From Dehalococcoidia bacterium (GTDB taxonomy: Bacteria > Chloroflexota > Dehalococcoidia > Plut-88900), in assembly GCA_965207225.1 (NCBI GenBank), contig CBDBLV010000005.1, positions 256,001-320,000 of the forward strand: a DNA stretch of 64,000 nucleotides, written 5' to 3'. The translations under genes and the position numbers were made by a program. This document shows, piece by piece, positions 3,230-24,934 of this stretch; the first letter of the stretch is position 1, and the number at the start of each line of letters is the position of its first letter. The notes beneath the pieces are model-generated. The model ran no database searches. It saw nothing but the letters and a program-made list of their open reading frames with translations, and was not told the DNA's origin.

Positions 3230-3296
3230 GGGGTGGGGTCGATGGGGGGAAGTGGGGTGGTGGTTAGTCAGGGGGGATCTTTAGTCTTAAGTCAGA

Positions 3297-3686: not shown

Positions 3687-4012
3687 CCTCACCCTAGCCC
3701 TCTCCCATCGAGGGAGAGGGGACAGGACCCCCACTCCACTGCTCTGTGTCAAGTGTTGGGCTTTGGGCCTTTTGGTCAACCGGGTTGCGTAGTCGAGCGC
3801 GTTCTTGTGAGTCACGTTTCACCCTCACCCTAGCCCTCTCCCATCGAGGGAGAGGGGACTGGGCCCCCTACCCACTGCCCTGTGTCGGGTGTTGAGCTTT
3901 GGGCCTTCAGATCAACCGGGTTGCGTAGTCGAGCGGGTTCTTGTGAGTTTCGTTTCACCCTCACCCTAGCCCTCTCCCATCGAGGGAGAGGGGACTGGGG
4001 CCCCCTACCCCA
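3641..4012. repeat. tandem array of three ~136-bp units, each with a family B hairpin (TCACCCTCACCCTAGCCCTCTCCCATCGAGGGAGAGGGGA)
   Basis: Units start with CAACCGG at 3641, 3777 and 3913 (period 136; third unit partial); a related hairpin lies inverted near 59016-59047. Confidence 0.9.
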
Positions 4013-4032
4013 GTTCCCCGGAATGGCGGGAG

Positions 4033-5208: not shown

Positions 5209-5217
5209 CGGATGCTC

Positions 5218-6312: not shown

Positions 6313-6354
6313 GGGGAGAGGCGCAAGACGCCCTTGTTCAGGCGCTGTAACGAC

Positions 6355-6834: not shown

Positions 6835-6846
6835 GGTTGGACCCTC

Positions 6847-8022: not shown

Positions 8023-8172
8023 GACGGCTCCTTTACAGGGTGCGCGGGTATGGGGCTATTGTATTCGGGCGGGGGGTGGGGGGCAAACGGGGGGAGTTGA
8101 CAGGCTAAACTGAGATTACGTAGTCTGATTGCTCAAAGGTGCACCCTGCCGTGGGCCTGGGAGGGCTAGAGA

Positions 8173-8379
8173 ATGAAACTGAATGTCACCATCGATCGAG
8201 ATGAAGACGGCGTCTGGATTGTCGAGTGCCCGTCGATTCCCGGTTGCGTTAGCCAAGGGGCCACGAAAGACGAAGCCCTGGTCAACATTCGGGAAGCCAT
8301 TGCCCTTTGCATCGAAGTGCGCGCTGAACAGGGATTGCCGTTAGCCGTTGAGACGCAGCAGGTGGAAGTTACCCTTTAA
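8173..8379 (+). CDS. hicB: HicB-family antitoxin (short form)
   Basis: DEDGVWIVECPSIPGCVSQGATKDEALVNIREAI is the HicB signature; GGAGG RBS upstream. Confidence 0.88.
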   Translation: MKLNVTIDRDEDGVWIVECPSIPGCVSQGATKDEALVNIREAIALCIEVRAEQGLPLAVETQQVEVTL

Positions 8380-8437
8380 TGCCTCGGCTGCAGGTTGGGA
8401 GGGACCCCGGACGGAAGCGGTGGGGTGAGGAAGAAGC

Positions 8438-8899
8438 CTAAAGGCCTCGGAGGTGGGCGAAGTTTACGGCGGTATCCGGAGCCTGAGCCCAAGCGGCTAG
8501 GTACAGATCTAGGTCAACTGTCACTAGGGGTGTGGCGGACGATAGGGTCTGCAGGAGAGCTGCGTCAGTAAGCCCCAGTCTAGTGAACGCGTCGTTGGAT
8601 GATGCCTCGGTGCTAGTGATGACGATTTCCCGACTGGTTTCGATAACGTGGCGGAGCATATCAAAAAAGCGGGACCGGTCGGGTTCCCTATGTTGAGCGA
8701 GCAGGTTCGAAGTTTCCGTGAGGGTGTTGGGAGTGACGAATACCTGATCAACTGTTGTCAGCAGATCATTCAACGCATCGTAGTCTTCGACCGTAAATGC
8801 CTGCAACCGTCTGTGTCTCTGGATGAGATGTCGGCCCACATTTCCGACTACCAGAAGCACCAACAGGTTGCTGTCGACGAAATATCCAGTCGGAGGCAA
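8438..8899 (-). CDS. PIN-domain protein
   Basis: YFVDSNLL, TPNTLTETSNL, LGLTDAALL, LVTVDLDL acidic PIN residues. Confidence 0.8.
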   Translation of the reverse strand: MPPTGYFVDSNLLVLLVVGNVGRHLIQRHRRLQAFTVEDYDALNDLLTTVDQVFVTPNTLTETSNLLAQHREPDRSRFFDMLRHVIETSREIVITSTEASSNDAFTRLGLTDAALLQTLSSATPLVTVDLDLYLAAWAQAPDTAVNFAHLRGL

Positions 8900-8903
8900 A
8901 GAG

Positions 8904-9188
8904 TCAGTCCCGCGTGACCAGGATGCGGTCTTTCAGGGACTCGACTTTGCCGCTCTGGTCGTCGACCTGGACTACCTTATAGGAGCGCTCAAACGGGCTG
9001 GCTAATTTTTCCGCGGCGGTCTGGGGGTTTCTTCGGTGCCAGGGTCTCGAAAAACCTATAGTGATCTTCCAAGTGCCCGACTCATCTTCGTAGACGACTT
9101 CCTCCAAGCCGACATTGGCAGTAGACTCGCTTTCGAATATCTCCGAAACATATTGCTTGGCAATTTGTACGGCTTGTTTCACGTCCAT
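8904..9188 (-). CDS. hypothetical protein, probable partner of the downstream PIN protein
   Basis: 94-aa ORF ending 4 nt upstream of the PIN gene; LEEV...WKITIGF...YKVVQVD pattern. Confidence 0.7.
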   Translation of the reverse strand: MDVKQAVQIAKQYVSEIFESESTANVGLEEVVYEDESGTWKITIGFSRPWHRRNPQTAAEKLASPFERSYKVVQVDDQSGKVESLKDRILVTRD

Positions 9189-9232
9189 CTTGTCACCCCG
9201 ATGTGGTGTTACAAGATTAGATTATAGCCCCC

Positions 9233-10411
9233 CTAAGCCCCCCTCGGCAGCCCCAGCCCCCGAGTCGCGACCACGTTGCGTTGGATCTCCTGGGAGCCCG
9301 ACTCTATGGTGTAGGGCACCGCGAACAGGTACTGGTTCGAGATGAACCCCTGCAGTTCAGCATATTTGGAGCCCGCTTCCAGCTGACCCTTCAGCCCCAT
9401 CACTTCCATCCCCACCCGGGCCAGCTTCTGCGACGTCTGGGTGCTCAGCAGCCTCAGCAGCGATGCTTCCATGTTCGGGACTATGCCCTCGGCCTGCATC
9501 CAGGCGATTCGGTAGGCCATCATGCGGGAGGTCTCCAGGTCGACGGCCACTTCGGCGAGCTTGTGGCGGACTATCGCGTCTTGGGCCAGGGTATGGCCGT
9601 TGACCGTGGTATCGTTGGCGTATCCGATTAGCAGGTCGAGGATGCGCTTGCCACCGGCGGGGTGGGTGATGCCCGTGCGCTCGAAGTCCAGCAGGGTCAT
9701 GGCGACGTACCAGCCCCGGTTCACCTCGCCCAGCACGTTATTCTTCGGGACCCGGACGTTGTCGAAGAACTCCTCGTTGAAGGAGCTCTCGCCGCTCATC
9801 TCCTGGATGGGCCGGACGGTGATGCCCGGCGTGTCCATGTCCAGCAGGAAGAAGGTGATGCCCCGGTGCTTGACGGCCTCGGTGTCCGTGCGGGCCAGCA
9901 GGAACATGTGGTCGGCGAACTGGGCGTAGCTGGACCAGATCTTCTGCCCGTTGATCACGTAGTCGTCGCCGTCCAGCACCGCCCGAGTCTGCAACGAAGC
10001 AAGGTCGGAGCCCGACTCCGGCTCGCTGAACCCCTGGCACCACACTGCTTCACCTCTCGCTATCGCGCCGAGATACGCCCTCTTTTGCTCTTCCGTGCCA
10101 TGGTGCATGAGGGTCGGGCCCAGGAGGTTGAGTCCGAAGGTGTCGATTCCCGGGGCCCCGCGGTACTCCCACTCCTCCTGGAAGATGAGCTGGGATATAG
10201 CGGATGCGCCCTGGCCGCCGTACTCCTCGGGCCAGCCCATGGTGTTCCAGCCCTTCTCGGCGAGCATCTTCCGCCACTTCATCTCCGTTTCCTTGTCGAC
10301 GTGGGCGAAGGATATGGGGCCGCCAATCCAGTCGGAGGGTAGGTTTTCGTCTAGGAAGTCCCTCACCTCCTGGCGAAATGCGGTCTGCTCTTCGGTCAGG
10401 TGCAAGTCCAT
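9233..10411 (-). CDS. acyl-CoA dehydrogenase family protein
   Basis: Start MDLHLT after an AGGAG RBS; WCQGFSEPESGSDLASL, LDFER, IESGSQEIQRN. Confidence 0.95.
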   Translation of the reverse strand: MDLHLTEEQTAFRQEVRDFLDENLPSDWIGGPISFAHVDKETEMKWRKMLAEKGWNTMGWPEEYGGQGASAISQLIFQEEWEYRGAPGIDTFGLNLLGPTLMHHGTEEQKRAYLGAIARGEAVWCQGFSEPESGSDLASLQTRAVLDGDDYVINGQKIWSSYAQFADHMFLLARTDTEAVKHRGITFFLLDMDTPGITVRPIQEMSGESSFNEEFFDNVRVPKNNVLGEVNRGWYVAMTLLDFERTGITHPAGGKRILDLLIGYANDTTVNGHTLAQDAIVRHKLAEVAVDLETSRMMAYRIAWMQAEGIVPNMEASLLRLLSTQTSQKLARVGMEVMGLKGQLEAGSKYAELQGFISNQYLFAVPYTIESGSQEIQRNVVATRGLGLPRGA

Positions 10412-10488
10412 CTGTTCACTCCTTGTTGAGCGGGAATGGGGCAAAGCCCAGGGTCATGATGTCGGGCGGGGTGGGCCGGGTGTCGGGG

Positions 10489-10728: not shown

Positions 10729-10909
10729 TTATTCCTCCCCGGTAGCCTGCTCCCCGACGCCTCTGTCGGTGACCGCATTCTAAGTCGGGCGGAAAAATGG
10801 TGTCAAACGTGGTTTATGCCTGCAGGGAAACGCGAAACCAATGCCCTAGCGTGTCCGAAGGCCATATTGTATGGTGGCGACCAACGAAAGCAGGGGAGAG
10901 GGTTTTGGC

Positions 10910-12257
10910 TTGAAGAACCAGGCATGTAGATATGGGAGGTGGCTCGGGGTCCTGGCTGCCCTGGCCGTTGTCGTATTGGTATTGGCATGCGGCGGGGCAC
11001 AGTCGACCATGGAGACTCCAACCTCTGATCCTACCCCCACCGTCCCACCAGCTCCTCCTACTCCCACCCCAACCCCCATCCCCACGTCGATAGCCCCTTC
11101 AGTCCCGGTTTCAGCCACTCAGATAGACGACGATACCACCTGGCAGGAGCTTTTCGACGATTTCACGCCCCGCCGAGCAGGACTGCATTCGCACGGAGGT
11201 CGGGAGTGAGCTGGAGTCGGTTCTGGGCGAACCAGTCATGACGGACGACGACCTGACGGACTGGCAGGTATCCCTCTTCGAGTGCCTGTCCCCCGAGACG
11301 GCCCGTTCCATATACGCTTCCTTGCTGGTTGCGGGGATGGTGAGTGATGAAACTTATGACGTGTCCGAGCAGGAAATTCAATGTGTGAGCGCGTGGGTGG
11401 CGGGCGCCGATGTACACTGGATTATCAGGGGCACGGCCGAAGAGGACCTGACCGTCATGGGCGAGATGTTGTCGGGGGTAGTTCCCTGCCTGCTGGATTT
11501 CTTCATGCCGGAGTTCCTTGCGGAGGTGGGCATTGACGCCGACACCCTGACGGATGATGAGCTGACCTGCCTGAACGAGTGGATGGTGGGATATGACTGG
11601 TCTAACTTAATTACGGGCTTGTTGGAAGACGACCTGGGCGTGATGGGCGAATTCCTTCCCGGCTTGATAAGCTGCGCCCCGGGTCCCTTCCTGGCGTTGA
11701 TGTTCGAAGACTTTGGGATCGACGTGGAAGCGCTGACTGATGAAGAGAAGAAATGCCTGGAAGATTGGCTGATAGACTTTGATTGGGACGCTGTCCTAGC
11801 CGCGATGACTGCTGTGGCTTTCGCGGATGAAGACGAGGCATACACCATCCTCGCCGAGGCCTTTGGCCTCCTGACCTGCGTTCCCGATCTATCCTTGTAT
11901 GAAAACGTCGGCTCCGGCGGTCCTGATGACCACGGTGACAGCATTACAGACGCCTCTCATATCGGCGTCGGGGAATCCATCGAGGGCGCCATCGACTACG
12001 AGTACGACGTAGACCTGTTCGAGCTAACGGCGGATGCAGGTCAGGTCTACCAGATCGACGTTTCCCTGGGCACCCTGGAAGACTCCGTGCTTGCCATCTA
12101 TGATGCCGACGGTTGGGAAGTCGCATACAACGACGATTACGGTGAAGGGTTGGCCTCACGCATTGTATGGGAGCCGGATGCCACCGGGGTCTACTACGTC
12201 GAGGTGTCAGGGCTTTTCTCCACGGGTTCATATGCGCTGACCATCATGGGCCAGTAG
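10910..12257 (+). pseudogene. acidic Cys-repeat lipoprotein with C-terminal PPC-like domain; frameshifted at 11168-11171
   Basis: Lipobox VLAC and a Pro/Thr linker; removing one C from CCCC joins ...DDFTP to AEQDCIRTEVG...MTDDD (ORF 11238..12257); C-terminal DVDLF...DSVLAIYD...NDD...YYVEV resembles a PPC domain. Confidence 0.7.
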
Positions 12258-12451
12258 AGGGCGAGCCGGGTGTCGGGCGGAGACTAGCCGAGCTAGCGAC
12301 TTAAACAGGACTACCCCCCGCTCATACTTCGACTAAGCTCAGCACGAGCGGCCCCGCGTGTTCTTCCTGGACACCGCCAAGGTCCACCTTGTGAAGCCCG
12401 ACCCCCTGATATACGATGCACCCGACCAACCTGAACTGGAGGAAACCCGAT

Positions 12452-12847
12452 ATGGCACTGACCCTGGACGAGTCAATCAAGCTGTGTGAAGCCGCCATAG
12501 CTAAGGCAAACGAGCTGGGAATCAAGATAAGTGTAGCCGTCTGTGACCCGGGCGGAAAACTGAAAGCCTTCGCCAGGATGGATGGGGCTATCTGGGCCAG
12601 CGTCTACGGCTCCCAGGGCAAGGCCACGACGTCCGTCGGGTTCGGCAGGCCCAGCGTGATGCTCCAGGAGAGAGCAGACCACCCGACCATCAAGGGAATC
12701 ATCGCCGCTTCGGGAAGCAACATGATCCCGGGCCAGGGTGCTATACCCGTCATCAGGAACGGTGTCGTGGAGGGGGCCTGCGGGGTGGGCGGGGGCACGG
12801 GTGAGGAAGACGAGATCTGCGCCCAGGCGGCCGTGGACTCTTTATAA
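12452..12847 (+). CDS. GlcG/HbpS-family heme-binding protein
   Basis: ISVAVCDPGG..RMDGA..KATTS..GAIPV..GACGVGGG..DE; GGAGG RBS. Confidence 0.88.
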   Translation: MALTLDESIKLCEAAIAKANELGIKISVAVCDPGGKLKAFARMDGAIWASVYGSQGKATTSVGFGRPSVMLQERADHPTIKGIIAASGSNMIPGQGAIPVIRNGVVEGACGVGGGTGEEDEICAQAAVDSL

Positions 12848-12944
12848 CTTTACCTCCCCCCCGCTCGCACTCCTTGGGGGACTCGGGGCTGGCTTAAGAG
12901 AGCCTCAGCACGAGCGGCCTAACCCCCCGACACCGCCGCAAGGC

Positions 12945-14453
12945 TTAGTCCGACCGGTAGTACTCCATGCCCAGGTGGGTGATCTGCTCTTCGCCCATCA
13001 GCCAGCGTAGGGTGTTCTTCAGCTTGGTCTGCTGGATGAAAAGGTCGTGCTCCGGGTATACAGATGGCGCGTGCTGGGGGCTCTTGAAGTAGAAGGATAG
13101 CCACTCCTGGATGCCCGCCAGCCCCGACCTCTGCGCCAGGTCCATGAACAGCACGAGGTCCAGCACCAGCGGCGCCGCCAGGATGGAGTCCGAGCACAGG
13201 AAATTGACCTTTAGCTGCATCCGCTTCCCCAGCCACCCAAAGAGGTCGATGTTGTCCCAGCCCTCCTTGTTGTCGCCTCTCGGGGGATAGTAGTTGATGC
13301 GCACCTTGTGGTAGGCGTCCGAGTAAAGCTCGGGGTACAGTTCGGGTTGCAGGATGTACTCCAGCACCCCCAGCTTAGACTCCTCTTTCGTCCTGAAGTT
13401 CTCGGGTTCGTCCAGCACCTCGCCGTCCCGGTTCCCGAGGATGTTCGTCGAGAACCAGCCGTCCATGCCCAGCATCCGGGCCTTGAGCATCGGGCCGATG
13501 ACCGTCTTGACCAGGGTCTGGCCGGTCTTGAAATCCTTGCCGCATACGGGCACGCCATTGTCTCGGGCCAGCTTCTCCAGCGCGGGGATGTCGACGGTCA
13601 GGTTGGGAGCGCCGTTGGCAAAGGGCACGCCCTCCATCAGCGCGGCGTAGGCGTATATCATCGAGGGGGCGATCTTCTCATCGTTGTCATGCAGTGCCCC
13701 AACGAAATCTTCGATACCCTGGTGCACCTCGTTTTCCGTAACGAATTTTTCGGTCGAGGCGCACCAGACCATGACCAGGCGGTCGCAGCCGTTTTCCTCT
13801 TTGAAACGACGGATGTCGCTGCGGATGGCATCAACGGCGGCCAGCTTGGAGTCCATCGACTTGACGTTCACGCCATCGATGCGCTTCACGTAGTCCTGGT
13901 CGAATACGGCCGGCATGGGCTCGATGGACTTCAGGAAGTCGGCGATGGGTTCCACCTGGTCGTATCGGTCCAGGACCCCGGCCTTTGAGGCTGCCTGGTA
14001 GGCGTTGTCGGGTATCGGGTCCCAGGCCCCGAAGACCAACTGGTCCAGGTCGGCCAAGGGCACGAAGTCCTTTATGAGCGGGGTCCGGCCGTCGGGCCTT
14101 TTGCCCAGGCGGATCGTAGCCATCTGGGACACCGACCCCACCGGGCTCCCCGTGCCCCGACGTATGTGCTCCACGCCCGCGATGAAGGTGGATGACACCG
14201 CCCCCAGCCCCACCAGCAGCACCCCGAGCTTGCCGTCGGCGGGTTGGATGTCGGGGGCGCCGGGCGCCACGAAGTCCTTGGGTTCCAGGGCTATACCCTG
14301 CTGGTAAGCAAGTTCCAAGAGCTTTTCGTGCCACTGGGCCGGGATCCGGGCCGTCCTCACCCAGTGCTGCACCGTGCTCTGTCGCTTGCCCAGCAGTGCT
14401 GCCAGCGCTGACTGCCCACCGAATCGTTCGATTATCTGCTTTGCGTTATTCAT
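12945..14453 (-). CDS. ino1: myo-inositol-1-phosphate synthase with N-terminal Cro/YdaS-like HTH fusion
   Basis: VGLGAV Rossmann motif, WCASTE, NGAP, GKDFKTGQT, NILGNRDG, DSILAAP, SFYFKSP; first ~60 aa (IIERFGGQSALAALLGKRQSTVQHW...IP) are Cro-like HTH. Confidence 0.92.
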   Translation of the reverse strand: MNNAKQIIERFGGQSALAALLGKRQSTVQHWVRTARIPAQWHEKLLELAYQQGIALEPKDFVAPGAPDIQPADGKLGVLLVGLGAVSSTFIAGVEHIRRGTGSPVGSVSQMATIRLGKRPDGRTPLIKDFVPLADLDQLVFGAWDPIPDNAYQAASKAGVLDRYDQVEPIADFLKSIEPMPAVFDQDYVKRIDGVNVKSMDSKLAAVDAIRSDIRRFKEENGCDRLVMVWCASTEKFVTENEVHQGIEDFVGALHDNDEKIAPSMIYAYAALMEGVPFANGAPNLTVDIPALEKLARDNGVPVCGKDFKTGQTLVKTVIGPMLKARMLGMDGWFSTNILGNRDGEVLDEPENFRTKEESKLGVLEYILQPELYPELYSDAYHKVRINYYPPRGDNKEGWDNIDLFGWLGKRMQLKVNFLCSDSILAAPLVLDLVLFMDLAQRSGLAGIQEWLSFYFKSPQHAPSVYPEHDLFIQQTKLKNTLRWLMGEEQITHLGMEYYRSD

Positions 14454-14461
14454 AATTGGCA

Positions 14462-14490
14462 ATTGTAACGATATTTTCGTTATCAGTCAA
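14462..14490 (-). promoter_or_regulatory. sigma70-type promoter of HTH-ino1 with embedded palindromic operator
   Basis: TTGACT (14490-14485), 17 nt, TACAAT (14467-14462), then 8 nt to the ATG; inverted repeat TAACGA-N5-TCGTTA at 14466-14482. Confidence 0.75.
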
Positions 14491-14547
14491 TCTTGAACCA
14501 GCAGTACCAGACAAGGTGAGATACAATCTGCCCACGAGAGAAACCTT

Positions 14548-14931
14548 GTGACTACCAGTGAAACCAACCCCGACCTCATATTCGCCGACGCCCGCCGAAT
14601 GTATTCTTCGGCCATGCACCGCATGGACGCCGACGACATCCGTGATGCCGCAGAAAAGGCTTGGTGCGCCACCCTCCGCGCCACCGAGGCCCTGGTCCTG
14701 GCCCGGACCGGCCAGTCTCCCGCCACATCTACCGCCGCCGGTAGAAGGCTGCGCTTGCTAGTAGAGACTAATCCTTCATTGGAAGCCCTCTCGCTCCGGT
14801 ACTCCGATCGCCTAGTAGTCCTCCGCGACGAATGCCTCCGCCATGAATACTGCCAGCCCGTCGTGACCGAGCGGCTCATTCGCGAGACTCCTGACTACAT
14901 CCGGGACGCCGAAGCCCTGTCCCACAACTAG
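14548..14931 (+). CDS. PaREP1/HEPN-like small protein
   Basis: DIRDAAEKAWCA resembles the PaREP1 QASEKAWGA motif; paralog at 35487..35873. Confidence 0.7.
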   Translation: MTTSETNPDLIFADARRMYSSAMHRMDADDIRDAAEKAWCATLRATEALVLARTGQSPATSTAAGRRLRLLVETNPSLEALSLRYSDRLVVLRDECLRHEYCQPVVTERLIRETPDYIRDAEALSHN

Positions 14932-15043
14932 CCCAACCCCATCCCCTGCAGGGGCAATCCCTCGTGGCTGTCCTAGGCCGCTACCTACCCTACCCCCGTC
15001 CCTTTGGCCCCACCCCCTGCCCTGCCCGTATAATGACCTCATC

Positions 15044-15679
15044 ATGGTTAGTGGAATCAATCCCGAAAACGTCAGCGGGGTGGCCCTGGCCGGGGGAATG
15101 AGCAGGAGGCTCGGGAGGAACAAGGCCGTCGAGGAGATAGGTGGCGAGCGGCTTATCGAGCGGGTCATCAACAGGCTGTCCGAGGTTAGCTCCGAGACGG
15201 TCGTCGTGGTGGCGGAGGAGTCCCGGGCCCAGGCCCTCGACCTGCCCGACGGGGTACGCACCGCCGCCGACATCTATCCGGGCCACGGGTCCCTGGGCGG
15301 CATCTTCACCGGTCTCTCCGCCGCCCGCGGAGACTGCGGCATAGTCGTGGCTTGCGACATGCCCTTTCTCAATACCGGCCTGCTCCAGTTCATGGTCGAC
15401 CTCGCACCCGATTTCGACGTGGTAGTCCCGAGGGTCGACGGCAGGCCCGAGCCCCTGCACGCCATATATTCGAAAAGCTGCCTCGAACCGATAGAGAGCA
15501 GGTTGAAGCGGCAGGACCTGAAGATCGCCCTCTTTTTCGAGGAGGTCAGAGTCGCTTATGTGGACGAGGATGACATAGACCTCTTCGACCCGGAGCGGCT
15601 GAGCTTCTTCAACGTCAACACCCAGGAAGACCTGGACAAGGCCCTGGCCCTTGAGGCACAGGGCTATTCCGACGAGTAG
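15044..15679 (+). CDS. mobA: molybdenum cofactor guanylyltransferase
   Basis: LAGGMSRRLGRNKA, GSLGGI, VACDMPF, EPLHAIY, FFNVNTQED. Confidence 0.93.
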   Translation: MVSGINPENVSGVALAGGMSRRLGRNKAVEEIGGERLIERVINRLSEVSSETVVVVAEESRAQALDLPDGVRTAADIYPGHGSLGGIFTGLSAARGDCGIVVACDMPFLNTGLLQFMVDLAPDFDVVVPRVDGRPEPLHAIYSKSCLEPIESRLKRQDLKIALFFEEVRVAYVDEDDIDLFDPERLSFFNVNTQEDLDKALALEAQGYSDE

Positions 15680-15687
15680 CAGTCCTC

Positions 15688-17475
15688 ATGCACGCGTATT
15701 GCGGCCAGGTCCTGGTCATCGACCTTCCCAGCGGAGCGTCTACGTTCGAGCCCCTCACGCCCGAGGAGCAGGTCTCCTTCATCGGTGGGGCGGGGCTGGG
15801 GGCATGGTTGCTCTACAGGCACTGCCCTCCGGGGGTCGACCCCCTCTCTCCAGAGTCCCCGTTAATCTTCGCCTGGGGCCCGTTCTTCGGGGCGGGGGTG
15901 CCGGGCTCGGCGAAGATGGCCGTGGCGTGCAAGTCGCCGCTCACGGGATTCGTCGGCGACTCCCTGTCCTCTGGACCCGTGGCAGAAGAGCTGTCCCGGA
16001 TGCCTTTCGATGCACTGGTCATCAAGGGCCGGGCGTCGGGACCCGCGGTGCTGCACATTGATGGTGAGTCGGTCAAAGTGCTGGATGCCGGAGAGTTGGC
16101 AGGTCTGTCGGCACAGGAAACCGCCACAAAGATGAACTCCATTGCCGGCTTTAGTGAGGCCCAGGTCGCGGTCATTGGCCCGGCCGGCGAGGCCCTGGTC
16201 AGCTTTGCCTGCATCAGCAACGGGGGTCGGCAGGCAGGAAGAACCGGCGCGGGCGCGGTGATGGGCTCGAAGAACCTGAAGGCCATAGCCATGCACGGCA
16301 ATGCAACTCTCCCAACCCCCCACCCCGATCTCGCTAACTTGAATGTAAGGCTCGGACGGGCCATGGAATCCAAGTCCACTGCCAAGTACCGGGGCCCGGG
16401 CACCGTGGGCAACCTGGCCAAGTTGAACGCGGCGGGCGCCCTCCCCGCATATAACTTCCGCCAGTACACCTTTGACGGCGCAGATAGGCTGAGCGTCGAG
16501 AGCTTGGAAAAGAGACGAGGCCAAGGCTCGGGTGGGATGTCCCGGGAGTGGGAGCATGTCTACTCGGCCAGGGGGCGCAGGGGAAGGACCCGGCTGGAGT
16601 ACGAGAGCCTCTTCGCCTTCGGCCCGATGTGCGGAATCAGCGACCCCGACATCGTAATCCGGGCGGCGGGTCTGTGCGATGACCTGGGCATCGACACCAT
16701 AAGCACCGGCGGCACCATTGCCTGGGCCATGGAGTCCTTTGAACGCGGACTCCTCACAATTGCCGACACAGGTGGCCTGGACCTGCGCTTTGGCAACGGG
16801 GATGCGCTGCTTGCGGCCATCGAGTCGATAGGGCATAGGGAGGGTATCGGGGAGCTTTTGTCGCAGGGCAGCCGAGGGGCAGCGGCCCAACTCGGCGGCG
16901 TCTCCGAGGCATGGGCCATGCACGTCAAGGGGCTGGAGATGCCTGGCTACCATCCCGGCAACCTTCGGCACCTGGCCCTCGCCCTTGCAGTCAGCCCCCG
17001 GGGCGCGTGCCATAACCGGGCCTCGGCCTACGATTTCGACCTCAGCGACGAGGATGCGTACCATGCCGACGCCTCGCAGATTGGCTTGGCCGTCGCCGAT
17101 GCCGAAGACTTCGCCGCCGTACTGGACTCTCTTGTCCTCTCCAAATTCGTGCGCCGTGCCCTGCGAGACTTCTTCCCTGAAGCTGCCCGGGTCTACCGCC
17201 TCGCCACGGGCCATGATATCGGCCCGGAAGATTTGCGGGCCTCGGGGGAGCGGATAAACCTGGTCCGCAAAGCTTTTAACGTCCGGGAGGGTTGGAGTCG
17301 AGAAGATGACACCCTCCCACCCCGCATCTTCGAGGGTGGTGTGGTGTCGGAGGCTGGCCTGGAAGAAATGATCGGGGCGTATTACGGCGCCCGGGGGTGG
17401 GGCAGGGAGGGGTTGCCAAGTCGGGACTCGCTCCGCGCTCTAGGCCTGAACATGCCGTCTGAAACACCTGTATAA
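15688..17475 (+). CDS. aldehyde:ferredoxin oxidoreductase (tungstopterin) family protein lacking the Fe-S cysteines
   Basis: KSPLTG, GRTGAGAVMGSKNLKA, EYES, CDDLGIDTIS, HVKGLEMPGY, RGACH, DDTLPPR. Confidence 0.9.
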   Translation: MHAYCGQVLVIDLPSGASTFEPLTPEEQVSFIGGAGLGAWLLYRHCPPGVDPLSPESPLIFAWGPFFGAGVPGSAKMAVACKSPLTGFVGDSLSSGPVAEELSRMPFDALVIKGRASGPAVLHIDGESVKVLDAGELAGLSAQETATKMNSIAGFSEAQVAVIGPAGEALVSFACISNGGRQAGRTGAGAVMGSKNLKAIAMHGNATLPTPHPDLANLNVRLGRAMESKSTAKYRGPGTVGNLAKLNAAGALPAYNFRQYTFDGADRLSVESLEKRRGQGSGGMSREWEHVYSARGRRGRTRLEYESLFAFGPMCGISDPDIVIRAAGLCDDLGIDTISTGGTIAWAMESFERGLLTIADTGGLDLRFGNGDALLAAIESIGHREGIGELLSQGSRGAAAQLGGVSEAWAMHVKGLEMPGYHPGNLRHLALALAVSPRGACHNRASAYDFDLSDEDAYHADASQIGLAVADAEDFAAVLDSLVLSKFVRRALRDFFPEAARVYRLATGHDIGPEDLRASGERINLVRKAFNVREGWSREDDTLPPRIFEGGVVSEAGLEEMIGAYYGARGWGREGLPSRDSLRALGLNMPSETPV

Positions 17476-17503: not shown

Positions 17504-17977
17504 TTGGACAGGGAACATATCAAAGAGGTGCTCGGCGGCTTTCCGCGTCACAGGACCCACCTGCTTCCCGCTTTGCGCGCCGTCCAGGAGGAGCTGCACT
17601 GGCTCCCGACCTGGGCCATGGAGGAGATCGGCGCCTACCTGCGGGTCCCGAAGAGCGAGGTTCACGGCGTCGCATCGTCCTTCCCTGAGCTCCGGCTGAA
17701 GGAGCCCGGCCGATTCGTTCTGAGGGTATGCACGGGCCTGGCCTGCTACCTGCAAGGCAGCGCCGAAATCCTGAAGGCCGTGAGTGGGGACCTGGGCATA
17801 GGGGTCGGGGAGACCACCGACGACGGCGCCATAACCCTGGAAGAGGCCCCCTGCCTGTTCGTGTGCGCCATGGCCCCGGCCATGGAACTGGGCGGTGGCC
17901 CCTTCGGCAGGCTCACCCCCGAGGACGCCGTGGCCCGACTCCAGGCCATCCCCCGGTTCCCCCCACCCCAGCCATGA
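17504..17977 (+). CDS. NuoE/FdsG-like [2Fe-2S] subunit
   Basis: LLPALRAVQEELHWLP; CTGLAC...CLFVC ligands. Confidence 0.9.
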   Translation: MDREHIKEVLGGFPRHRTHLLPALRAVQEELHWLPTWAMEEIGAYLRVPKSEVHGVASSFPELRLKEPGRFVLRVCTGLACYLQGSAEILKAVSGDLGIGVGETTDDGAITLEEAPCLFVCAMAPAMELGGGPFGRLTPEDAVARLQAIPRFPPPQP

Positions 17978-19578
17978 CCTATCCTGAGTTAAAATCGAAG
18001 GCCGACTGCGAGGCCCAGGCTCGCTTCCCCAGGGCCCTGGTGCAGCTTGGCGGCTGCACGCGCACCGTCGGGGCGGGGGCGGTACTGCAGCTGCTCCAGG
18101 CCGCTGTAGCCAAGAAAGGCCTGATGTCTCCCGTGCTGGTGGCCGGATGCGACGGCGCCTGCCACGACGCCCCGGTCGTCATCATCGAGATGGCCGAGGG
18201 CCTCACCTTCCGGCTGACCCACGTCGGCCCCGCGGACGTGAACGAGATACTGAGTTTCTGGCTCGCCGGTCAAGCGGAATCCTCGTCGACCTGGAAGGGC
18301 ACGCCAGCGGCGTGGCCTTTGTCGGGTGATGAGTCGGGGTTCTGGGGTCGACAGGAGCGTCGGGTGATGAGGGATATTGGATACATCGACCCCCACAGCA
18401 TCGACGACTACATCTCCAAGGGCGGCTACTCCACCCTGAATAGCGTTCTCAACTCCATGACTCCCGACCAGGTGGTCGACGAGGTGGTCAGGCTGGAACT
18501 GCGAGGGCGGGGCGGGGCCTATTTCCCAGCGGGGATCAAGTGGCGCGGGGCCCGGGCCACGGGGCGCTCGCCCCGATACCTGGTAGTCAACGCAGAGGAG
18601 GGGGAGCCGGGCATATACAAAGACCGACACATCATGGAGGGCAACCCCTTCATGCTTCTTGAGGGGCTAGCTATCGCCGCGTACGCTATCGGGGCGGACA
18701 AGACCTACCTGTACGTCAACGGGGAAGCCGACGAGGCCGCGGGTCGGGTGGAGGATGCCCTGGACCTCGCCCGGGACCTGGGCTTGGCCGGCGATAACGT
18801 CCTGGGCGCCGACTTCAACCTGGACATCGAGGTGAGGCGGGGCGGCGGGGGATACGTGCTTGGGGAAGAGAGCGCCCTGATGAACAGCATCGAAGGGCAG
18901 AGGAACGTGCCCCGCACCAAGCCGCCCTTCCCGGTGGAGTCGGGGCTTTGGGGCCAGCCGACGGTGATAAACAACGTCGAGACCCTGTGCAACCTCCCCC
19001 TGCTCCTCTCCACCCCCGGCGCAGACCCATCGCCCGGGACCAAGCTGATATCACTGAGCGGTCGGGTCCAGAGGCCCGGCCTGGTGGAAGTGCCCATGGG
19101 AACCACAGTGAGGGACATCGTCTACGAGGTCGGGGGTGGGCCGCCGGATGGCTACGAAGTGACGGGTGTGGTGGCGGGGGGGCCGTCGGGTGGGCTTTTG
19201 AACGAGTCGATGCTGGACGTCGCCATCGGCCCCGGTATGCTCGACCCCGAGGGCGCGGTCCTTGGGTCGGGGGGTATCACGGTATTCGACACCAGCGTCT
19301 CGCCGGTGGAGGTTGTGAGACGGCTGGCGGCGTACAACGCGGCGGAGTCGTGCTCCAAGTGCACCCCTTGCCGTGAGGGAACGAAGCGGATGCTGGACCT
19401 GCTGGGCGCAGTGCAGAGGGGTGAGGAGGGGAGGTCGGGGCTGGAGAAGCTGGCCTACCTCAACGACGTGGTCGGGTTCGGCTCCCTGTGCGGCCTGGGA
19501 CAGATGGCCCCGGGCCCCGTGCGGTCGGGGCTGGCGCACTTCCGGGAAGCCTTTGAGGGGGCGGCGGATTCGAGTTAA
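17974..19578 (+). CDS. NuoF/FdsB-like NADH/FMN-binding subunit
   Basis: ATGA overlap with the upstream stop; LRGRGGAYFPAGIKW, NAEEGEPG, YVLGEESAL, INNVET, SCSKCTPCREG...LCGLG. Confidence 0.92.
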   Translation: MTYPELKSKADCEAQARFPRALVQLGGCTRTVGAGAVLQLLQAAVAKKGLMSPVLVAGCDGACHDAPVVIIEMAEGLTFRLTHVGPADVNEILSFWLAGQAESSSTWKGTPAAWPLSGDESGFWGRQERRVMRDIGYIDPHSIDDYISKGGYSTLNSVLNSMTPDQVVDEVVRLELRGRGGAYFPAGIKWRGARATGRSPRYLVVNAEEGEPGIYKDRHIMEGNPFMLLEGLAIAAYAIGADKTYLYVNGEADEAAGRVEDALDLARDLGLAGDNVLGADFNLDIEVRRGGGGYVLGEESALMNSIEGQRNVPRTKPPFPVESGLWGQPTVINNVETLCNLPLLLSTPGADPSPGTKLISLSGRVQRPGLVEVPMGTTVRDIVYEVGGGPPDGYEVTGVVAGGPSGGLLNESMLDVAIGPGMLDPEGAVLGSGGITVFDTSVSPVEVVRRLAAYNAAESCSKCTPCREGTKRMLDLLGAVQRGEEGRSGLEKLAYLNDVVGFGSLCGLGQMAPGPVRSGLAHFREAFEGAADSS

Positions 19579-19672
19579 AGGCCGCTCAAGGTGAGCGGGT
19601 TGGGTGAGGCATGGGTCTCACGGGTGTAGAATAGGCACTAACTCAGTCTCATGGCGGCACGGAGACAACGCA

Positions 19673-22420
19673 GTGACCATCAACCTCACAATTGACGGCA
19701 TGCCTATCGAGGCGCGGGAGGGGAGTTCCATCCTGGAGGCGATTAACGCCTCCGGGACGTACATCCCCCAGCTGTGCAAGGACCCGGCCATGCCCGCCAT
19801 CGGGGCATGCAGGACTTGCCTCGTGCAGGTCGAGGGCCGACGCGGCTTCCCCGCCTCTTGTCACACCCCCGTCTCCGATGGCATGGTCGTACAGACCAAC
19901 AGCCCCGAGGTGCGGCGCATCCGCCAGGGCATCCTCGACCTCACCCTCGGCATGCTCCCCACCGAGACCCCCGGCCAGCCCCTCGCTGAGCACAAGGAAC
20001 TGAAGACCGCCTCCCGGTTCCACGACCTTCTCACCACCGGCTACGAGACCCGGGCCCGGGACCACACCGACTCCAGCAATCCCTTCTTCTCCGTGGAAAT
20101 GGATGACTGCATCCTCTGCGGACGCTGCGTCGAGGCCTGCCAGGACCTTCAGCAGATCGGGGCCATTGCGATTCTGGGGCGGGGGCAGGATGCGTTTATC
20201 GGGACGTATGGCGATGACCCCATCGCCGATTCTATATGCACGTCCTGCGGCTCCTGCGTAGCCGCCTGCCCGACCGGCGCCATCGAGCCGAAGATCAATC
20301 CAGCCAACGCCGTGAAGCAGACCTCCACAGTCTGCCCCTACTGCGGGGTGGGGTGCGGGATCGTGCTGAACACCGACAAGAACGGCAAGGTTCTGTGGGT
20401 GGACGACGACCCGGAGAACCAGTCGAGCCTCGGGAAGCTGTGCGTGAAGGGCCGGTTTGGCGTGACCTTCGTGAACCACGGCGACCGGCTGACCACCCCC
20501 CTCATCCGCAAGAACGGCGTTTTCACTGAGGCATCGTGGGACGAGGCCCTGGACTACACCGCCGGCAAGCTGGTAGAGCACCGGGGGGCAACTGCCGCTC
20601 TCGCCTCTGCCAAGGCCACAAACGAGGACGGCTACGTCCTCCAGAAGTTCATGCGCCTCGCCCTGGGCACCAACAGCATCGACCACTGCACCCGGCTGTG
20701 CCACTCGCCGTCGGTGGAGGCCATGCTCAGGTCCCTCGGGAGCGGGGCGACCAGCAACTCCTACCTCGACTACGAAAAGGCCGGGTGCCTGATAATCGCC
20801 GGCTGTGACCCGAGCGCCAACCACCCCGTGGCCGCGACCCGCTTTCGCAAGGCCGTCGACCTGTACGGCGCCCAGCTTATAGTCATCAACCCCAAGCGCA
20901 TCGAGTTGTGCGACTACGCCTACCTCTGGCTTCGAGAAAAACCCGGAACCGACGTCGCCCTATTCAACGGCATGGCCAAGGTCATCCTCGACGAGGGCCT
21001 GGCCGACGAGCAGTTCGTCGCCGAACGCACCGAGGGTTTCGAGGAGTGGAAGGCGTCTCTTGCCCAGTACACCCCCGACTTCGTAGAGTCGATAACCGGC
21101 GTCCCAAAGGAGCAGATGATCGAGGCGGCCCGCATCTACGCCCGACCCCCCTTCAGCGGCTCGTGCTTCGTGTGGGGCATGGGCCTGACGCAGCACACCA
21201 ACGGCACCGCCAACTGCCACGCCGTGCTTAACCTGGCGCTGGTGTCGGGGCAGATGGGGCGTCGGGGCAACGGCATATCGCCGCTGCGGGGACAAAACAA
21301 CGTCCAGGGTTGCGGCGACGCCGGCTGCACGCCGAGCAACCTGCCCGGTTACCAGGACCTCGACCCCGAGTCCCTGGAGAAGTTCGCCCGGGCCTGGGGC
21401 GGCCGTCTGCCGGAGGAGTCGGGATTCGTGGTCACCGACATGATGAGGGAGGCTGAGGAAGGTCGGCTGGAGGCCATGTACGTGGTCGGGGAGAACCCGC
21501 TGCTCAGCGAGCCCGACCTCCGCCACGCCCGCGAGGCCATCGAAAACCTGAAATTCCTGGTAGTCCAGGACATCTTCCTCAGCGAGACCGCAGAGATCGC
21601 CGACGTGGTGCTCCCCGCAACCAGCTTCGCCGAGAAGGACGGGACGTTCACCAACAGCGAACGTCGGGTGCAGCGGGTTCGCAAGGCCATAGAGCCCGTC
21701 GGCCAGAGCAGGCCCGACTGGGATATCACCTCGGACCTGGCGCGTCGGGTGTGCCGGAGGCTCGGCATGGACGAGTCCCAGTTTGACTACGGCCACCCGA
21801 AGGAGATCTTCGACGAGATGGCCGCTCTCACGCCCATAATTGCAGGTATTACCTACGACCGGCTGGACGCGGAGGGCGGTATCCAGTGGCCCTGCCCCAC
21901 CCCCGACCACCCAGGCACCCCCATACTCTACGAGGACAGCTTCCCGAGGGGTCTCGGCAAGTTCGTGCCCGTCGAGCAGACCGAGCCTGCTGCCGAGCTT
22001 CCCAACCGCCGCTTCCCGTTGATCCTGAACACGGGCCGGACGCTATACCACTGGCATGGCGGCACCATTACCCGTCGGGTGGAGGGCCTGGTTGCCCGGG
22101 CCCCGGAACTGATCGTGACGATCCACCCCAAGGACGCCAATAGGGCGGGGATTTCGGACAAGGAAGAGGTGAGGGTGGAATCGAGGAGGGGGGAGCTGGA
22201 GGGCCGGGCGTCGGTCACCGACGCCGTGAGGGAAGGCGAGATATTCGTGCCCTTCGTGAAGCTCAAGGAGTCGGCGGCAAACTTCCTGACCAACCGGGCC
22301 TTTGACCCCGCCTCCAAGATCCCGGAATTCAAGGTCTGCGCCGTCCGCGTCGAGCCCAAGTCCTCCCCGAGGAAGGTGAGGAAAGGGCCCCGCCCCATGA
22401 CCGCCGTCATGCGGCCTTAG
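19673..22420 (+). CDS. fdhA: formate dehydrogenase alpha subunit (Cys-type, FdsA/FdhA-like)
   Basis: N-terminal 2Fe-2S, two 4Fe-4S motifs, CPYCGVGC, LCVKGRFG, DHCTRLCHSPS, WGMGLTQH, LRGQNNVQG, PEFKVCAV; GTG start after GGAG. Confidence 0.93.
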   Translation: MTINLTIDGMPIEAREGSSILEAINASGTYIPQLCKDPAMPAIGACRTCLVQVEGRRGFPASCHTPVSDGMVVQTNSPEVRRIRQGILDLTLGMLPTETPGQPLAEHKELKTASRFHDLLTTGYETRARDHTDSSNPFFSVEMDDCILCGRCVEACQDLQQIGAIAILGRGQDAFIGTYGDDPIADSICTSCGSCVAACPTGAIEPKINPANAVKQTSTVCPYCGVGCGIVLNTDKNGKVLWVDDDPENQSSLGKLCVKGRFGVTFVNHGDRLTTPLIRKNGVFTEASWDEALDYTAGKLVEHRGATAALASAKATNEDGYVLQKFMRLALGTNSIDHCTRLCHSPSVEAMLRSLGSGATSNSYLDYEKAGCLIIAGCDPSANHPVAATRFRKAVDLYGAQLIVINPKRIELCDYAYLWLREKPGTDVALFNGMAKVILDEGLADEQFVAERTEGFEEWKASLAQYTPDFVESITGVPKEQMIEAARIYARPPFSGSCFVWGMGLTQHTNGTANCHAVLNLALVSGQMGRRGNGISPLRGQNNVQGCGDAGCTPSNLPGYQDLDPESLEKFARAWGGRLPEESGFVVTDMMREAEEGRLEAMYVVGENPLLSEPDLRHAREAIENLKFLVVQDIFLSETAEIADVVLPATSFAEKDGTFTNSERRVQRVRKAIEPVGQSRPDWDITSDLARRVCRRLGMDESQFDYGHPKEIFDEMAALTPIIAGITYDRLDAEGGIQWPCPTPDHPGTPILYEDSFPRGLGKFVPVEQTEPAAELPNRRFPLILNTGRTLYHWHGGTITRRVEGLVARAPELIVTIHPKDANRAGISDKEEVRVESRRGELEGRASVTDAVREGEIFVPFVKLKESAANFLTNRAFDPASKIPEFKVCAVRVEPKSSPRKVRKGPRPMTAVMRP

Positions 22421-23194: not shown

Positions 23195-24094
23195 ATGCCC
23201 CGCAACCTCAAGCGCAGCAAGACTTCCTCCTTCGGCACCGTGTCCCGAGAGGGCCACGACTCCCGATCCTTCTACTCCAAGCGCCTCTACGAAGGTCGGC
23301 GGAACGGTGCCCGGGAATCGACGGAGTACGTCGAGAACACCCCCGACCACCTCGATGTCATCCACTGCGCCGACGCCCTGGACATGCACCACCTCCCCGA
23401 CAACTCCGTCCACCTGATGATCACCTCGCCCCCGTACAACGTCGGCAAGGACTATGACGACGACCTCTCCCTCTCCGAGTACCGGGCCCTGCTTTCCGAC
23501 GTGCTGGGCGAGACGTACCGGGTGCTGGTGGAGGGGGGTCGGGCGTGCGTGAACATCGCCAACGTCGGGCGGACACCCTACATACCCCTGCACGTCGACA
23601 TCATGGACATCGCCCGTGAGTGCGGCTTCCATATGCGCGGCGAGATAATCTGGGACAAGGGCGCCAGTGCGGGCACGTCCTGCGCCTGGGGCAGCTGGAG
23701 GTCGGCGAGCAATCCGGTCTTAAGGGACGTCCACGAATACATCCTGGTCTTCTGCAAGGATGCCTACAAGCGTCGGGTCACGGGGGAGAACAGTGTGGGC
23801 CGGGACGAGTTCCTGGAGTACACCAAGAGCATCTGGCGCTTCCCCGCCGCCAGCGCCCGGAAGGCCAACCACCCCGCCCCCTTCCCCCTGGAGCTGCCGC
23901 TCCGTTTGATCAACCTTTACTCATTCAAGGGCGACGTGGTCCTGGACCCGTTCATGGGGTCGGGCACGACGGCTGAGGCGGCAGTCCAAGCCAACCGACA
24001 CTACGTGGGCTACGAAATCAACCCCGTCTACGTAGACCATGCCCGAGCCAGGCTAGGCCAGATGTCGGGGCTGCCGATGAAGCTAGTGGACTGA
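23195..24094 (+). CDS. site-specific DNA methyltransferase (N4-C/N6-A, beta class), orphan in this window
   Basis: ITSPPYN catalytic motif precedes HPAPFP and VLDPFMGSGTT. Confidence 0.92.
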   Translation: MPRNLKRSKTSSFGTVSREGHDSRSFYSKRLYEGRRNGARESTEYVENTPDHLDVIHCADALDMHHLPDNSVHLMITSPPYNVGKDYDDDLSLSEYRALLSDVLGETYRVLVEGGRACVNIANVGRTPYIPLHVDIMDIARECGFHMRGEIIWDKGASAGTSCAWGSWRSASNPVLRDVHEYILVFCKDAYKRRVTGENSVGRDEFLEYTKSIWRFPAASARKANHPAPFPLELPLRLINLYSFKGDVVLDPFMGSGTTAEAAVQANRHYVGYEINPVYVDHARARLGQMSGLPMKLVD

Positions 24095-24115: not shown

Positions 24116-24934
24116 CTAAGCTGAGGGCGAGTGGTGTTCGTGGTCTGTTACCCCCATCACCTCCCCAAGCTCTGCGCTCAGCACTTCATCAACCCCCAGC
24201 CCCTCCCCCCGGGGCCTGAACCTCAGCTCCCGACCTTTCCACGAAAGCACGTAATCGTCGCCGGACCCGACATGCAGGAGCCCGTTCCCCGAGGTTGCGC
24301 CCGTTATGGCCTGCAGGGCGTCGTTGATACTGCCGTCGGGGCCCCAGGTGACCTTCAGGTCGGGGTCCTTCTTGGCGATGCCCCAGTGATGGATCGCATG
24401 GTCCACCATCCTAGCCCCGAGGGCCGCGCCCATGCACCGCTTCCCGTGGAAGTTCTCCGCCTCGAACACCATGTCCCGCAGGAACGACTCCCGGTTCCGA
24501 CCCCCCGGGTGCTCCGTGTCCCGGGCCGTCCTCGCCGAGAATATCGAGTCCCAGCCCGGAGAGTAACGCTTGATGTCGACTACCGGCGTGCCGTCGATCA
24601 TGTCCAGCCTGTCCAGCTTTACCACCCGGCCCTCGACCCCCAGCACACGCGCCGAGGTTAGCCCCACGGGGTTCGGCCTGTCCGGCGACCTCATCCCGAA
24701 CACGCCCCTCTCCGGGCCCCCGTGCCTCGACGCCGTCAACCTCTCCCTGTCCGCCCTGTGGAACCACCCCAGGATGATCAGGTGCGTATTCGACTCGATA
24801 CCAGCCAACCCGGCCTCGTACTCCGGGAACACCTCGATGGATGCGGACACCCCATCGATAGGCATCTCATCCCCCTCCCCGACACTTGAAACAACTCTCC
24901 CGATCGACTTGATCTCGTACGTTTCGCCGCTCAT
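24116..24934 (-). CDS. TrmO/TsaA-like SAM-binding protein fused to an FmdE-like domain
   Basis: GVFGMRSPDRPNPVGL and DGTPVVDIK (TrmO); FHGKRCMGAALG...DALQAITGAT.GNG (FmdE-like). Confidence 0.82.
   Translation of the reverse strand: MSGETYEIKSIGRVVSSVGEGDEMPIDGVSASIEVFPEYEAGLAGIESNTHLIILGWFHRADRERLTASRHGGPERGVFGMRSPDRPNPVGLTSARVLGVEGRVVKLDRLDMIDGTPVVDIKRYSPGWDSIFSARTARDTEHPGGRNRESFLRDMVFEAENFHGKRCMGAALGARMVDHAIHHWGIAKKDPDLKVTWGPDGSINDALQAITGATSGNGLLHVGSGDDYVLSWKGRELRFRPRGEGLGVDEVLSAELGEVMGVTDHEHHSPSA

Follow-up and report, generated by a model that had tools for sequence, protein, structure and literature searches.

The AOR-like gene and its former cluster site

We analysed 64,000 nucleotides of contig CBDBLV010000005.1 from a Dehalococcoidia bacterium (assembly GCA_965207225.1, positions 256,001 to 320,000; this whole stretch is referred to below as the window), in which five tightly spaced genes are found in the order mobA, AOR-like, fdsG-like, fdsB-like and fdsA. 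As judged by sequence comparison, the AOR-like gene, which lies within this formate dehydrogenase (FDH) operon, encodes a conserved and remodelled member of the AOR family that has become cluster-free, with its pterin-site signature intact.

The operon, with all five genes on the forward strand, opens with mobA (15044..15679), which codes for a molybdenum cofactor guanylyltransferase (Pfam NTP_transf_3, 1.3e-34); the best NCBIfam matches of its product are MobA models, below their cut-offs, and it is 60% identical to mobA from the same position in L001, a related locus described below. The mobA stop codon is separated by an 8-nt spacer from the start of the AOR-like gene (15688..17475), which is followed after 28 nt by an fdsG-like gene (17504..17977) for a NuoE-type [2Fe-2S] subunit (Pfam 2Fe-2S_thioredx, 3.7e-36; top NCBIfam match to formate dehydrogenase subunit gamma, below cut-off), starting with TTG and preceded by GGAGG 5 nt upstream. 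The fdsB-like gene (17974..19578) codes for a NuoF-type FMN/[4Fe-4S] subunit (Pfam Complex1_51K, SLBB and NADH_4Fe-4S); its putative start was placed at the ATG at 17974, which overlaps the fdsG stop (ATGA), the mechanical open reading frame (ORF) beginning at 17728 and the L001 counterpart measuring 551 aa. The last gene, fdsA (19604..22420), encodes the alpha subunit of formate dehydrogenase; its product has a 2Fe-2S/4Fe-4S domain at the N-terminus and the CTRLCH Cys-His active-site motif, and scores 759 bits against TIGR01591 (Fdh-alpha; cut-off 666). The best solved relative of FdsA is the alpha subunit of the tungsten-containing FDH from Methylobacterium extorquens (7e5z/7vw6, 3.8e-218), and the next is Rhodobacter capsulatus FdsA (6tg9).

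The AOR-like frame (15688-17475) runs uninterrupted for 595 aa, as the initial annotation had stated, and both Pfam domains of the family are present at full length: AFOR_N at residues 6-204 (1.7e-63, profile positions 1-198 of 199) and AFOR_C at residues 226-587 (2.2e-96, profile positions 11-385 of 385). The Pfam scan yielded no additional domain in this ORF, FdhD-NarQ included, and NCBIfam returned only partial AOR and GAPOR matches, all below cut-off. In a phmmer search of PDB sequences the protein aligned end to end with 9mqx_D, the catalytic subunit of an electron-bifurcating WOR (6e-93, top match), and with 1aor_A (2.9e-82), and likewise with 9g7j (C. autoethanogenum AOR) and 1b25 (P. 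furiosus FOR). An AlphaFold2 model built from a 58-sequence alignment has a mean pLDDT of 90.7 and a pTM of 0.93, and shows the three-domain AOR fold; Foldseek matched it to nine PDB entries at E<=1e-3, exclusively AOR/WOR chains with TM 0.85-0.93, and superposition on 1aor_A gave a TM of 0.93 and an rmsd of 2.1 Å. A search of the ESM Atlas retrieved only generic AOR clusters. Overall, the ORF is a full-length AOR/WOR-family protein with the complete fold and domain set.

What the protein lacks is the family's means of binding its single [4Fe-4S] cluster, namely CxxCxxxC and a fourth Cys in DSxxxC. Correspondence of the ligands was established by counting residues along the printed 1aor alignment and checking the codons in the DNA. 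P. furiosus AOR residues C288, C291, C295 and C494 align with S281 (TCG, 16528-16530), M284, W288 (TGG, 16549-16551) and S485 (TCC, 17140-17142) of the AOR-like protein. The former CxxCxxxC site (16528..16557, forward strand) now reads S281-G-G-M284-S-R-E-W288-E-H, and the former DSxxxC motif (17125..17148, forward strand) reads DSLVLSKF, with S485 in place of the fourth ligand. The initial annotation, which had reported the loss of all four cysteines, was right about this and about the motifs and their positions, except that the interval it gave for the first one, 16528-16551, stops at W288, and the quoted EH reaches 16557. All four ligands have been swapped for residues unable to ligate iron.

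The pterin site shows the opposite picture. All five pterin/Mg motifs named in the initial annotation (KSPLTG, GRQAGRTGAGAVMGSKNLKA, EYES, DDLGIDTIS and RGACH) are indeed found in the translation, and KSPLTG, GRQAGRTG, EYE, DxLGxDTIS and RGACHN are retained as the pterin-site signature. In alignment A1, residues T239, E306 and H442 are invariant and Y421 is nearly so; their counterparts in P. furiosus AOR are Thr243, Glu313, His448 and Tyr427, respectively, which are given as the conserved residues of aldehyde-oxidising members in the part of PMC13328260 consulted, and the excerpted text of PMC12096430 describes the non-aldehyde YdhV and BamB clades as being without these second-shell residues. 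The AOR-like protein thus aligns with the family both in its pterin/phosphate motifs and in its second-shell residues, and the conservation of the motifs supports the view that it would bind a tungsten- or molybdenum-bis-pyranopterin.

The Cys-less clade and other cluster-less lineages

We compared the query with its 150 best representatives at 50% identity. Three or more Cys in the first motif region, together with one or more in the second, occur in 138 of these 151 sequences, and only five have no Cys at either site, two of these being the query and the representative of its own clade; absence at both sites is thus no mere chance occurrence. Among the 120 best matches in the 90%-identity database, 62 (P0002-P0062 and P0070, 51-97% identical to the query) have no Cys at the four aligned positions, and the remaining 58 carry CANCTIGCE[KH] and DSLIWCKF. 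The motifs SR[ED]WEH and DSL[VI]LSKF are common to the 62 Cys-less proteins, save P0050, where a garbled sequence takes the place of the first motif, and the truncated P0056. Those Cys-less relatives that are named come from metagenome-assembled genomes (MAGs) of Chloroflexota/Dehalococcoidia. In trees of 72 and 73 sequences, in which 17 Cys-less rows were sampled, all 17 were placed in one clade with an SH-aLRT support of 99, or of 97 with the motif columns removed. A clade sharing the substitutions, for which the initial annotation had proposed to search, therefore does exist.

For column statistics we dropped the fragmentary or aberrant P0046-P0050, P0052 and P0056, which left 56 Cys-less and 58 Cys-containing sequences. 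Positions 281 and 284 are variable in the Cys-less clade (S/V/P/E/N/G/D/Q and M/V/L/R/P/A/S, respectively), while position 288 is W and 485 is S throughout; L484 is invariant as well, R286 is conserved at 96% in the 56 sequences, and the Cys-containing sister clade has W484-C485 at the fourth-ligand site. At least 95% conservation is seen in 219 of the 595 columns of the Cys-less set; in 168 columns identity reaches 95% or more in the two sets alike. Seventeen columns are fixed differently between the two, including C288->W, W484->L, C485->S and I286->R (numbered as in the AOR-like protein); C288->W is paired with W484->L and accompanied by I286->R, each being at least 90% fixed in both clades. 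Such paired, fixed changes point to a repacked pocket rather than to erosion.

Constraint was gauged by protein conservation and by rate relative to FdsA, since synonymous sites are saturated between the window and L001 (52% protein identity). The proteins of the two loci are 51.8% identical for AOR, 54.0% for FdsG and 58.6% for FdsB, i.e. the AOR-like protein is about as conserved in this pair as FdsG and FdsB. Taken together, the single clade, the invariant W288 and S485, the retained pterin and second-shell residues and the FdsG/FdsB-like rate support the interpretation, put forward in the initial annotation, that the loss of cysteines represents a conserved functional change and not decay.

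The cluster site is altered in other parts of the family as well. In P0138, from SAR324 MAGs, the four Cys are all replaced, and four of the six members of this sequence cluster are full-length (585 aa). In P0124 and P0213 the loop is deleted and the fourth Cys is also lost; in P0131, of which 8 of 11 cluster members measure 546 aa, the loop is deleted and the fourth Cys is kept. The pterin motifs (KSPLTG, GRxAGR, EYE, DxxGxDxxS and RGAxHN) are preserved in P0138 and in P0124/P0213, and P0131 likewise keeps its pterin motifs. When the state without ligands is mapped on the tree, it requires at least three changes by well-supported branches and four by parsimony; at least two further lineages have lost the cluster independently of the query's clade.

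Gene order at related loci and in the window

A scan of genome contigs with generic AOR peptide patterns listed 80 loci, which is a lower bound (at least 80), and 79 of these keep the AOR cysteines, L001 from a Dehalococcoidia MAG being the only Cys-less one among those listed. The AOR-like protein of L001 is identical to P0070, the deepest branch of the Cys-less clade, and its gene order is mobA, AOR-like, fdsG, fdsB and fdsA, with an 8-nt overlap between the AOR-like gene and fdsG. The same order also occurs, among the 80 listed, in seven loci with all four AOR cysteines (L002, L003, L004, L007, L008 and L015 from Dehalococcoidia, and L013 from Binatia). The association with mobA and FDH was thus in place before the cysteines were lost, which weakens the idea of a scaffold for MobA. 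The initial annotation had taken adjacency to mobA as the mark of a bis-pterin carrier that matures the FDH; this argument loses strength now that seven cluster-bearing loci share the order, although the mobA-fdh synteny as such does recur in L001. Linkage to FDH is found in 8 of the 80 listed loci, all of them within the 15 most similar to the query.

Directly upstream of the AOR gene, all seven Cys-containing loci have a MoaD/ThiS-like ORF of about 100 aa with a C-terminal Gly-Gly; the copy in L013 matches ThiS, and that in L003 matches the SAMP1 and MoaD models. With the L003 ORF (5524-5835) as a tblastn query, it was located directly upstream of AOR in 10 further loci (11 in total, all Cys-containing), which include L002 (9616-9906), L007 (9662-9964), L013 (9732-9989) and 7 further loci, and was not found in the window or in L001. 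This MoaD/ThiS/SAMP1-like ORF probably corresponds to the "WorX" of PMC13328260. In addition, a moeA-PBP gene precedes mobA in all four Cys-containing loci that were scanned upstream (L002, L003 and L008 by Pfam, L004 by similarity), and no such gene is adjacent at either Cys-less locus. The Cys-less loci look like a trimmed version of a cluster combining cofactor synthesis, AOR and FDH.

Several other features of these loci deserve mention. An ORF of 210-250 aa is located directly downstream of fdsA in L003 (13665-14414), L002 (18353-19075), L004 (about 18347-19072) and L008 (18028-18669); its copies are 50-75% identical to each other, have no Pfam or NCBIfam match, and are not present in the window or L001; an FDH accessory role that has so far escaped recognition is conceivable. 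The AOR-FDH clusters of Dehalococcoidia MAGs are interrupted by toxin-antitoxin-like or mobile genes: a nucleotidyltransferase/HEPN pair in L008 (11945-12662), DUF433/DUF5615 in L002 (13932-14713) and GIY-YIG in L003 (10365-10811). A few kb downstream of its FDH genes, L001 has a canonical Cys-containing AOR paralog (10907-12649, with CxxxCxxxC and DSSGFCLF), followed by the start of a third AOR (12817-13365).

We also searched for longer, fused AOR proteins and obtained seven matches, P0307-P0313. P0307 (1446 aa, from one contig) reads as an in-frame fusion of a Cys-containing AOR with FdsA, in which the junction lacks some 15 residues from the C-terminus of AOR and some 28 from the 2Fe-2S domain of FdsA. 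P0313 was rejected as an AOR-FdsA fusion, being an artefact with out-of-frame Arg/Pro-rich stretches between the two parts, as was a supposed fdsB-fdsA fusion in L013 (ORF 12416-16255), in which the fdsB match is in another frame. In P0308-P0312 (1108-1224 aa; two are named as Candidatus archaeal MAG proteins) a complete AOR is fused to an AMP-binding, acyl-CoA synthetase-like enzyme, an arrangement that might couple acid activation to aldehyde chemistry.

Pfam scans of the window covered 66 ORFs (16 + 50), seven ORFs shorter than 95 aa of the 69-ORF greedy set being left out. Neither FdhD (PF02634) nor FdsD was found among these 66 ORFs or in the 13-kb L001, in line with the initial annotation, which had seen no fdhD in the window. 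A second AOR, a stand-alone 4Fe-4S polyferredoxin (WorS/AorA) and a tungstate-transporter gene were not found among the scanned ORFs either, and Rfam gave no match on the window, and hence no Moco riboswitch. Complex prediction for the AOR-like protein with MobA, which was run without controls, gave ipSAE values of 0.00 and 0.00, which speak neither for nor against binding.

A gene for an HbpS/GlcG-like protein (PF03928) is found near both Cys-less operons, at 12416-12847 (forward strand) in the window and at 8399-8881 (forward strand), directly downstream of fdsA, in L001. With an identity of only 32% between the copies, their shared location may be a coincidence; the window copy has no match in the Cys-containing loci (tblastn, E<=1e-5). 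Directly downstream of the FDH operon lies an N6/N4 DNA methyltransferase gene (23195-24094, forward strand), at the corresponding place of which L007 has an MmeI-type restriction-modification gene. On the opposite strand, 1.7 kb downstream of fdsA, a TrmO/TsaA-type N-terminal domain is fused to an FmdE domain (24116-24934, reverse strand); FmdE is named after the operon of molybdenum formylmethanofuran dehydrogenase. The segments 1364-10444 (reverse strand) and 32450-44858 contain five acyl-CoA dehydrogenase paralogs in a row, along with three luciferase-like monooxygenases and an enoyl-CoA hydratase. The G+C content of the window is 61%.

Proposed function and comparison with known systems

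The reading that we place first, with a probability of about 0.4, is that of a cluster-free bis-pterin enzyme which would retain AOR-type chemistry and pass its electrons directly to an external partner, possibly the iron-sulfur/flavin module of the FDH. A cluster-free pterin enzyme was also what the initial annotation had proposed; the loss of the cluster ligands on which it built is confirmed, and the enzyme itself, as argued from sequence, heads our ranking too. The AOR-like protein probably belongs to a hitherto undescribed kind of pterin protein that has no cluster. Tungsten- or molybdenum-bis-pyranopterin would still be bound and would carry out an AOR-type two-electron oxidation of an aldehyde; formaldehyde or another small aldehyde would suit an operon that oxidises formate, as the two successive oxidations would make a coherent whole. 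A precedent of sorts is offered by Methyloversatilis, for which the portion of PMC5023235 consulted gives a tungsten-dependent aldehyde dehydrogenase as predicted to convert formaldehyde to formate. With the internal relay gone, an external redox partner would take the electrons straight from the reduced metal-pterin centre, and the most economical candidate for this role is the Fe-S/FMN module of FdsGBA, encoded in the same operon. The emptied cluster pocket is most likely filled and stabilised by Trp288 together with the R286/E287 pair and the W484->L change; Trp288 was also considered as an electron-hopping relay, which was judged unlikely on redox-potential grounds, the space-filling role being preferred. 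That several lineages have shed a cluster which is oxygen-labile and costly in iron suggests that they adapted to oxic or iron-poor habitats.

It should be kept in mind that a number of points weigh against such an enzyme. Without a cluster, the distance from the pterin to the partner may exceed the range of useful electron transfer, and cofactor binding, catalysis and partner alike are predictions. Model confidence is low at the former cluster loop, where residues 281-286 form the sole internal segment with pLDDT below 50; the corresponding blocks score 91-96 in the Cys-containing L003 AOR, a sister protein whose model was built from an alignment just as deep. The AOR/FdsA divergence ratio is 1.69 in the window-L001 comparison, which is a single Cys-less pair, versus 0.99-1.26 in 10 Cys-containing pairs, and this faster relative rate would fit some relaxation or shift of constraint. 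The disappearance of the MoaD/ThiS-like ORF and of moeA-PBP from the Cys-less loci could mean less need for a dedicated cofactor supply. The synteny is seen in two of two Cys-less loci, the window and L001, out of about 60 members of the clade. Finally, the only candidate for an AOR-FdsA fusion, P0307, is a single Cys-containing sequence of uncertain status, being either a true Rosetta-stone fusion or an assembly artefact.

The protein might instead be an independent enzyme that is only co-regulated with FDH as part of a tungsten/molybdenum cofactor regulon, employing a soluble partner or a self-contained reaction such as ping-pong oxo-transfer, dismutation or a hydration without redox change like that of acetylene hydratase. 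Its active-site residues are retained; genes inserted between AOR and FDH in the Cys-containing L008, L002 and L003 argue against obligatory stoichiometric coupling; and the Cys-containing L014 and L023 have the MoaD-like ORF (L023 also mobA) with no FDH within 10 kb. We regard this as a serious but less likely alternative, given that the genes are tightly packed at both Cys-less loci, up to the aor/fdsG overlap in L001, and that restriction of FDH linkage to the nearest relatives is more specific than a general cofactor regulon predicts. Somewhat less probable still is a non-catalytic accessory of FDH, which would hold, store or hand over the bis-pyranopterin (W/Mo-bis-MPT) to MobA and then to FdsA, or serve as a structural or regulatory subunit of FdsABG partly replacing FdsC/FdhD or FdsD. 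The AOR fold binds bis-MPT without nucleotide, which is the species that MobA acts on in E. coli, and at both Cys-less loci the gene is situated directly between mobA and fdsGBA, with FdhD and FdsD not found in the window or in L001; an accessory protein no longer passing electrons would have no further need for a cluster, and a new role would agree both with the faster relative rate and with the missing MoaD-like ORF. However, fdhD may lie elsewhere in the genome, and the same synteny is found at the seven cluster-keeping loci, with an ordinary-looking Class I WOR and its MoaD-like partner, so that adjacency is no distinguishing mark of the Cys-less proteins. The aldehyde-specific second-shell residues, needless for a mere carrier, are fixed in the Cys-less clade and in the independent cluster-less lineages, and the cofactor, deeply buried in solved AORs, is ill suited to release.

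Two further explanations were considered. An Fe-S cluster still held by alternative ligands has a precedent in WOR5/ASOR of the AOR family, which uses three Cys and one Asp according to the available text of PMC12096430, and the clade has gained two cysteines, C81 (15928-15930) and C175 (16210-16212), each present in 98% of the 56 Cys-less sequences and in none of the 58 from the sister clade. Both are replaced, by T and S, in P0070, the earliest-branching Cys-less member, and they appear to be located just ahead of the two phosphate-binding loops, away from the cluster site, where they may form a disulfide or a metal site or simply contribute to packing. Comparison of conserved Cys in the 56 Cys-less and 58 sister sequences revealed no clade-wide substitute ligand set: C315, C330 and C441 are conserved, but equally so in the sister clade, which has the canonical ligands. 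At none of the four positions is Cys, His or Asp consistent, and other lineages delete the whole loop, all of which makes an alternatively ligated cluster very improbable. As for a decaying, functionless gene, to which the loss of a family-defining cofactor site and the faster rate relative to FdsA might be attributed, it is hardly credible in view of the intact frame, the 62 relatives with the same replacements down to 51% identity, the 219 columns conserved at 95% or above, the compensatory substitutions and the conserved synteny.

The cluster-free bis-pterin enzyme remains our preferred interpretation, and may be extended in a more speculative and rather unlikely direction: a whole FDH-linked AOR/WOR branch would have shed its cluster on three or more occasions, in lineages among which are marine groups (Dehalococcoidia/Chloroflexota, SAR324), and would constitute a new functional class. 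Its members could serve either as an extra catalytic head wired into the Fe-S/FMN module of a tungsten-type NAD-linked FDH, yielding a two-step aldehyde-to-CO2:NAD+ machine, or as a bis-pyranopterin holder feeding MobA and FDH where FDH operons are without fdhD and fdsD.

In the sections of the two reviews consulted (PMC12096430 and PMC13328260), AOR-family members are described as carrying a nearby Fe4S4 cluster, which the classes defined there presuppose, and the proximal [4Fe-4S] is treated as a constant of the tungsten/AOR-family enzymes. Within the excerpts of the literature searched, we found no cluster-free AOR-family protein and no AOR gene in an FDH (fds) operon, although supplementary tables of two classification papers may list the clade. 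If the present interpretation is true, the AOR fold can work without a cluster, in parallel to the type III dimethyl sulfoxide (DMSO) reductases of the other bis-pterin family, and the protein would offer a natural system for studying the exit of electrons from a tungsto- or molybdopterin centre; more oxygen-tolerant, iron-sparing catalysts for aldehydes or acids might also come of it. Because the gene keeps its position between mobA and a tungsten-type NAD-linked FDH, a link to CO2/formate catalysis, whether functional or in maturation, is open to direct test.

Among known systems, the Class I WORs (1aor, 9g7j, 1b25) share with the AOR-like protein both Pfam domains, the fold (TM 0.92-0.93), 31-35% identity, the pterin motifs and the second-shell Thr/Glu/Tyr/His, and differ from it in having the four ligands and, often, an adjacent MoaD/ThiS-like "WorX" ORF. 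The FDH-linked Cys-containing AOR clade (L002, L003, L004, L007, L008, L015 and L013) is 48-52% identical and has the same gene order, but keeps CANCTIGCE[KH] and DSLIWCKF, the upstream MoaD/ThiS-like ORF and the moeA-PBP fusion (Pfam-confirmed in L002, L003 and L008). Class IV WOR/AorABC enzymes (9mqx, 8c0z), in which AOR is wired to NuoE/NuoF-like or FAD modules reducing NAD+, resemble the present system in that the AOR-like gene adjoins NuoE- and NuoF-like genes; here, however, there is no polyferredoxin WorS/AorA gene, the large subunit is cluster-less, and the NuoE/F-like genes belong to the FDH. FdhD/FdsC and FdsD are encoded in FDH operons elsewhere, e.g. fdsGBACD (consulted part of PMC12571268), and FdhD has a maturation or accessory role for FDH (consulted part of PMC13197769). 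Neither FdhD/FdsC nor FdsD has any sequence relationship to the AOR-like protein. In the DMSO reductase family, the type III enzymes (TorA, DorA, BisC) use a bis-pterin cofactor without the FS0 cluster usual there, and exchange electrons directly with an external partner, which for TorA and DorA is a cytochrome; they differ in fold and family and contain bis-MGD instead of bis-MPT, and the resemblance to the AOR-like protein is one of functional analogy.

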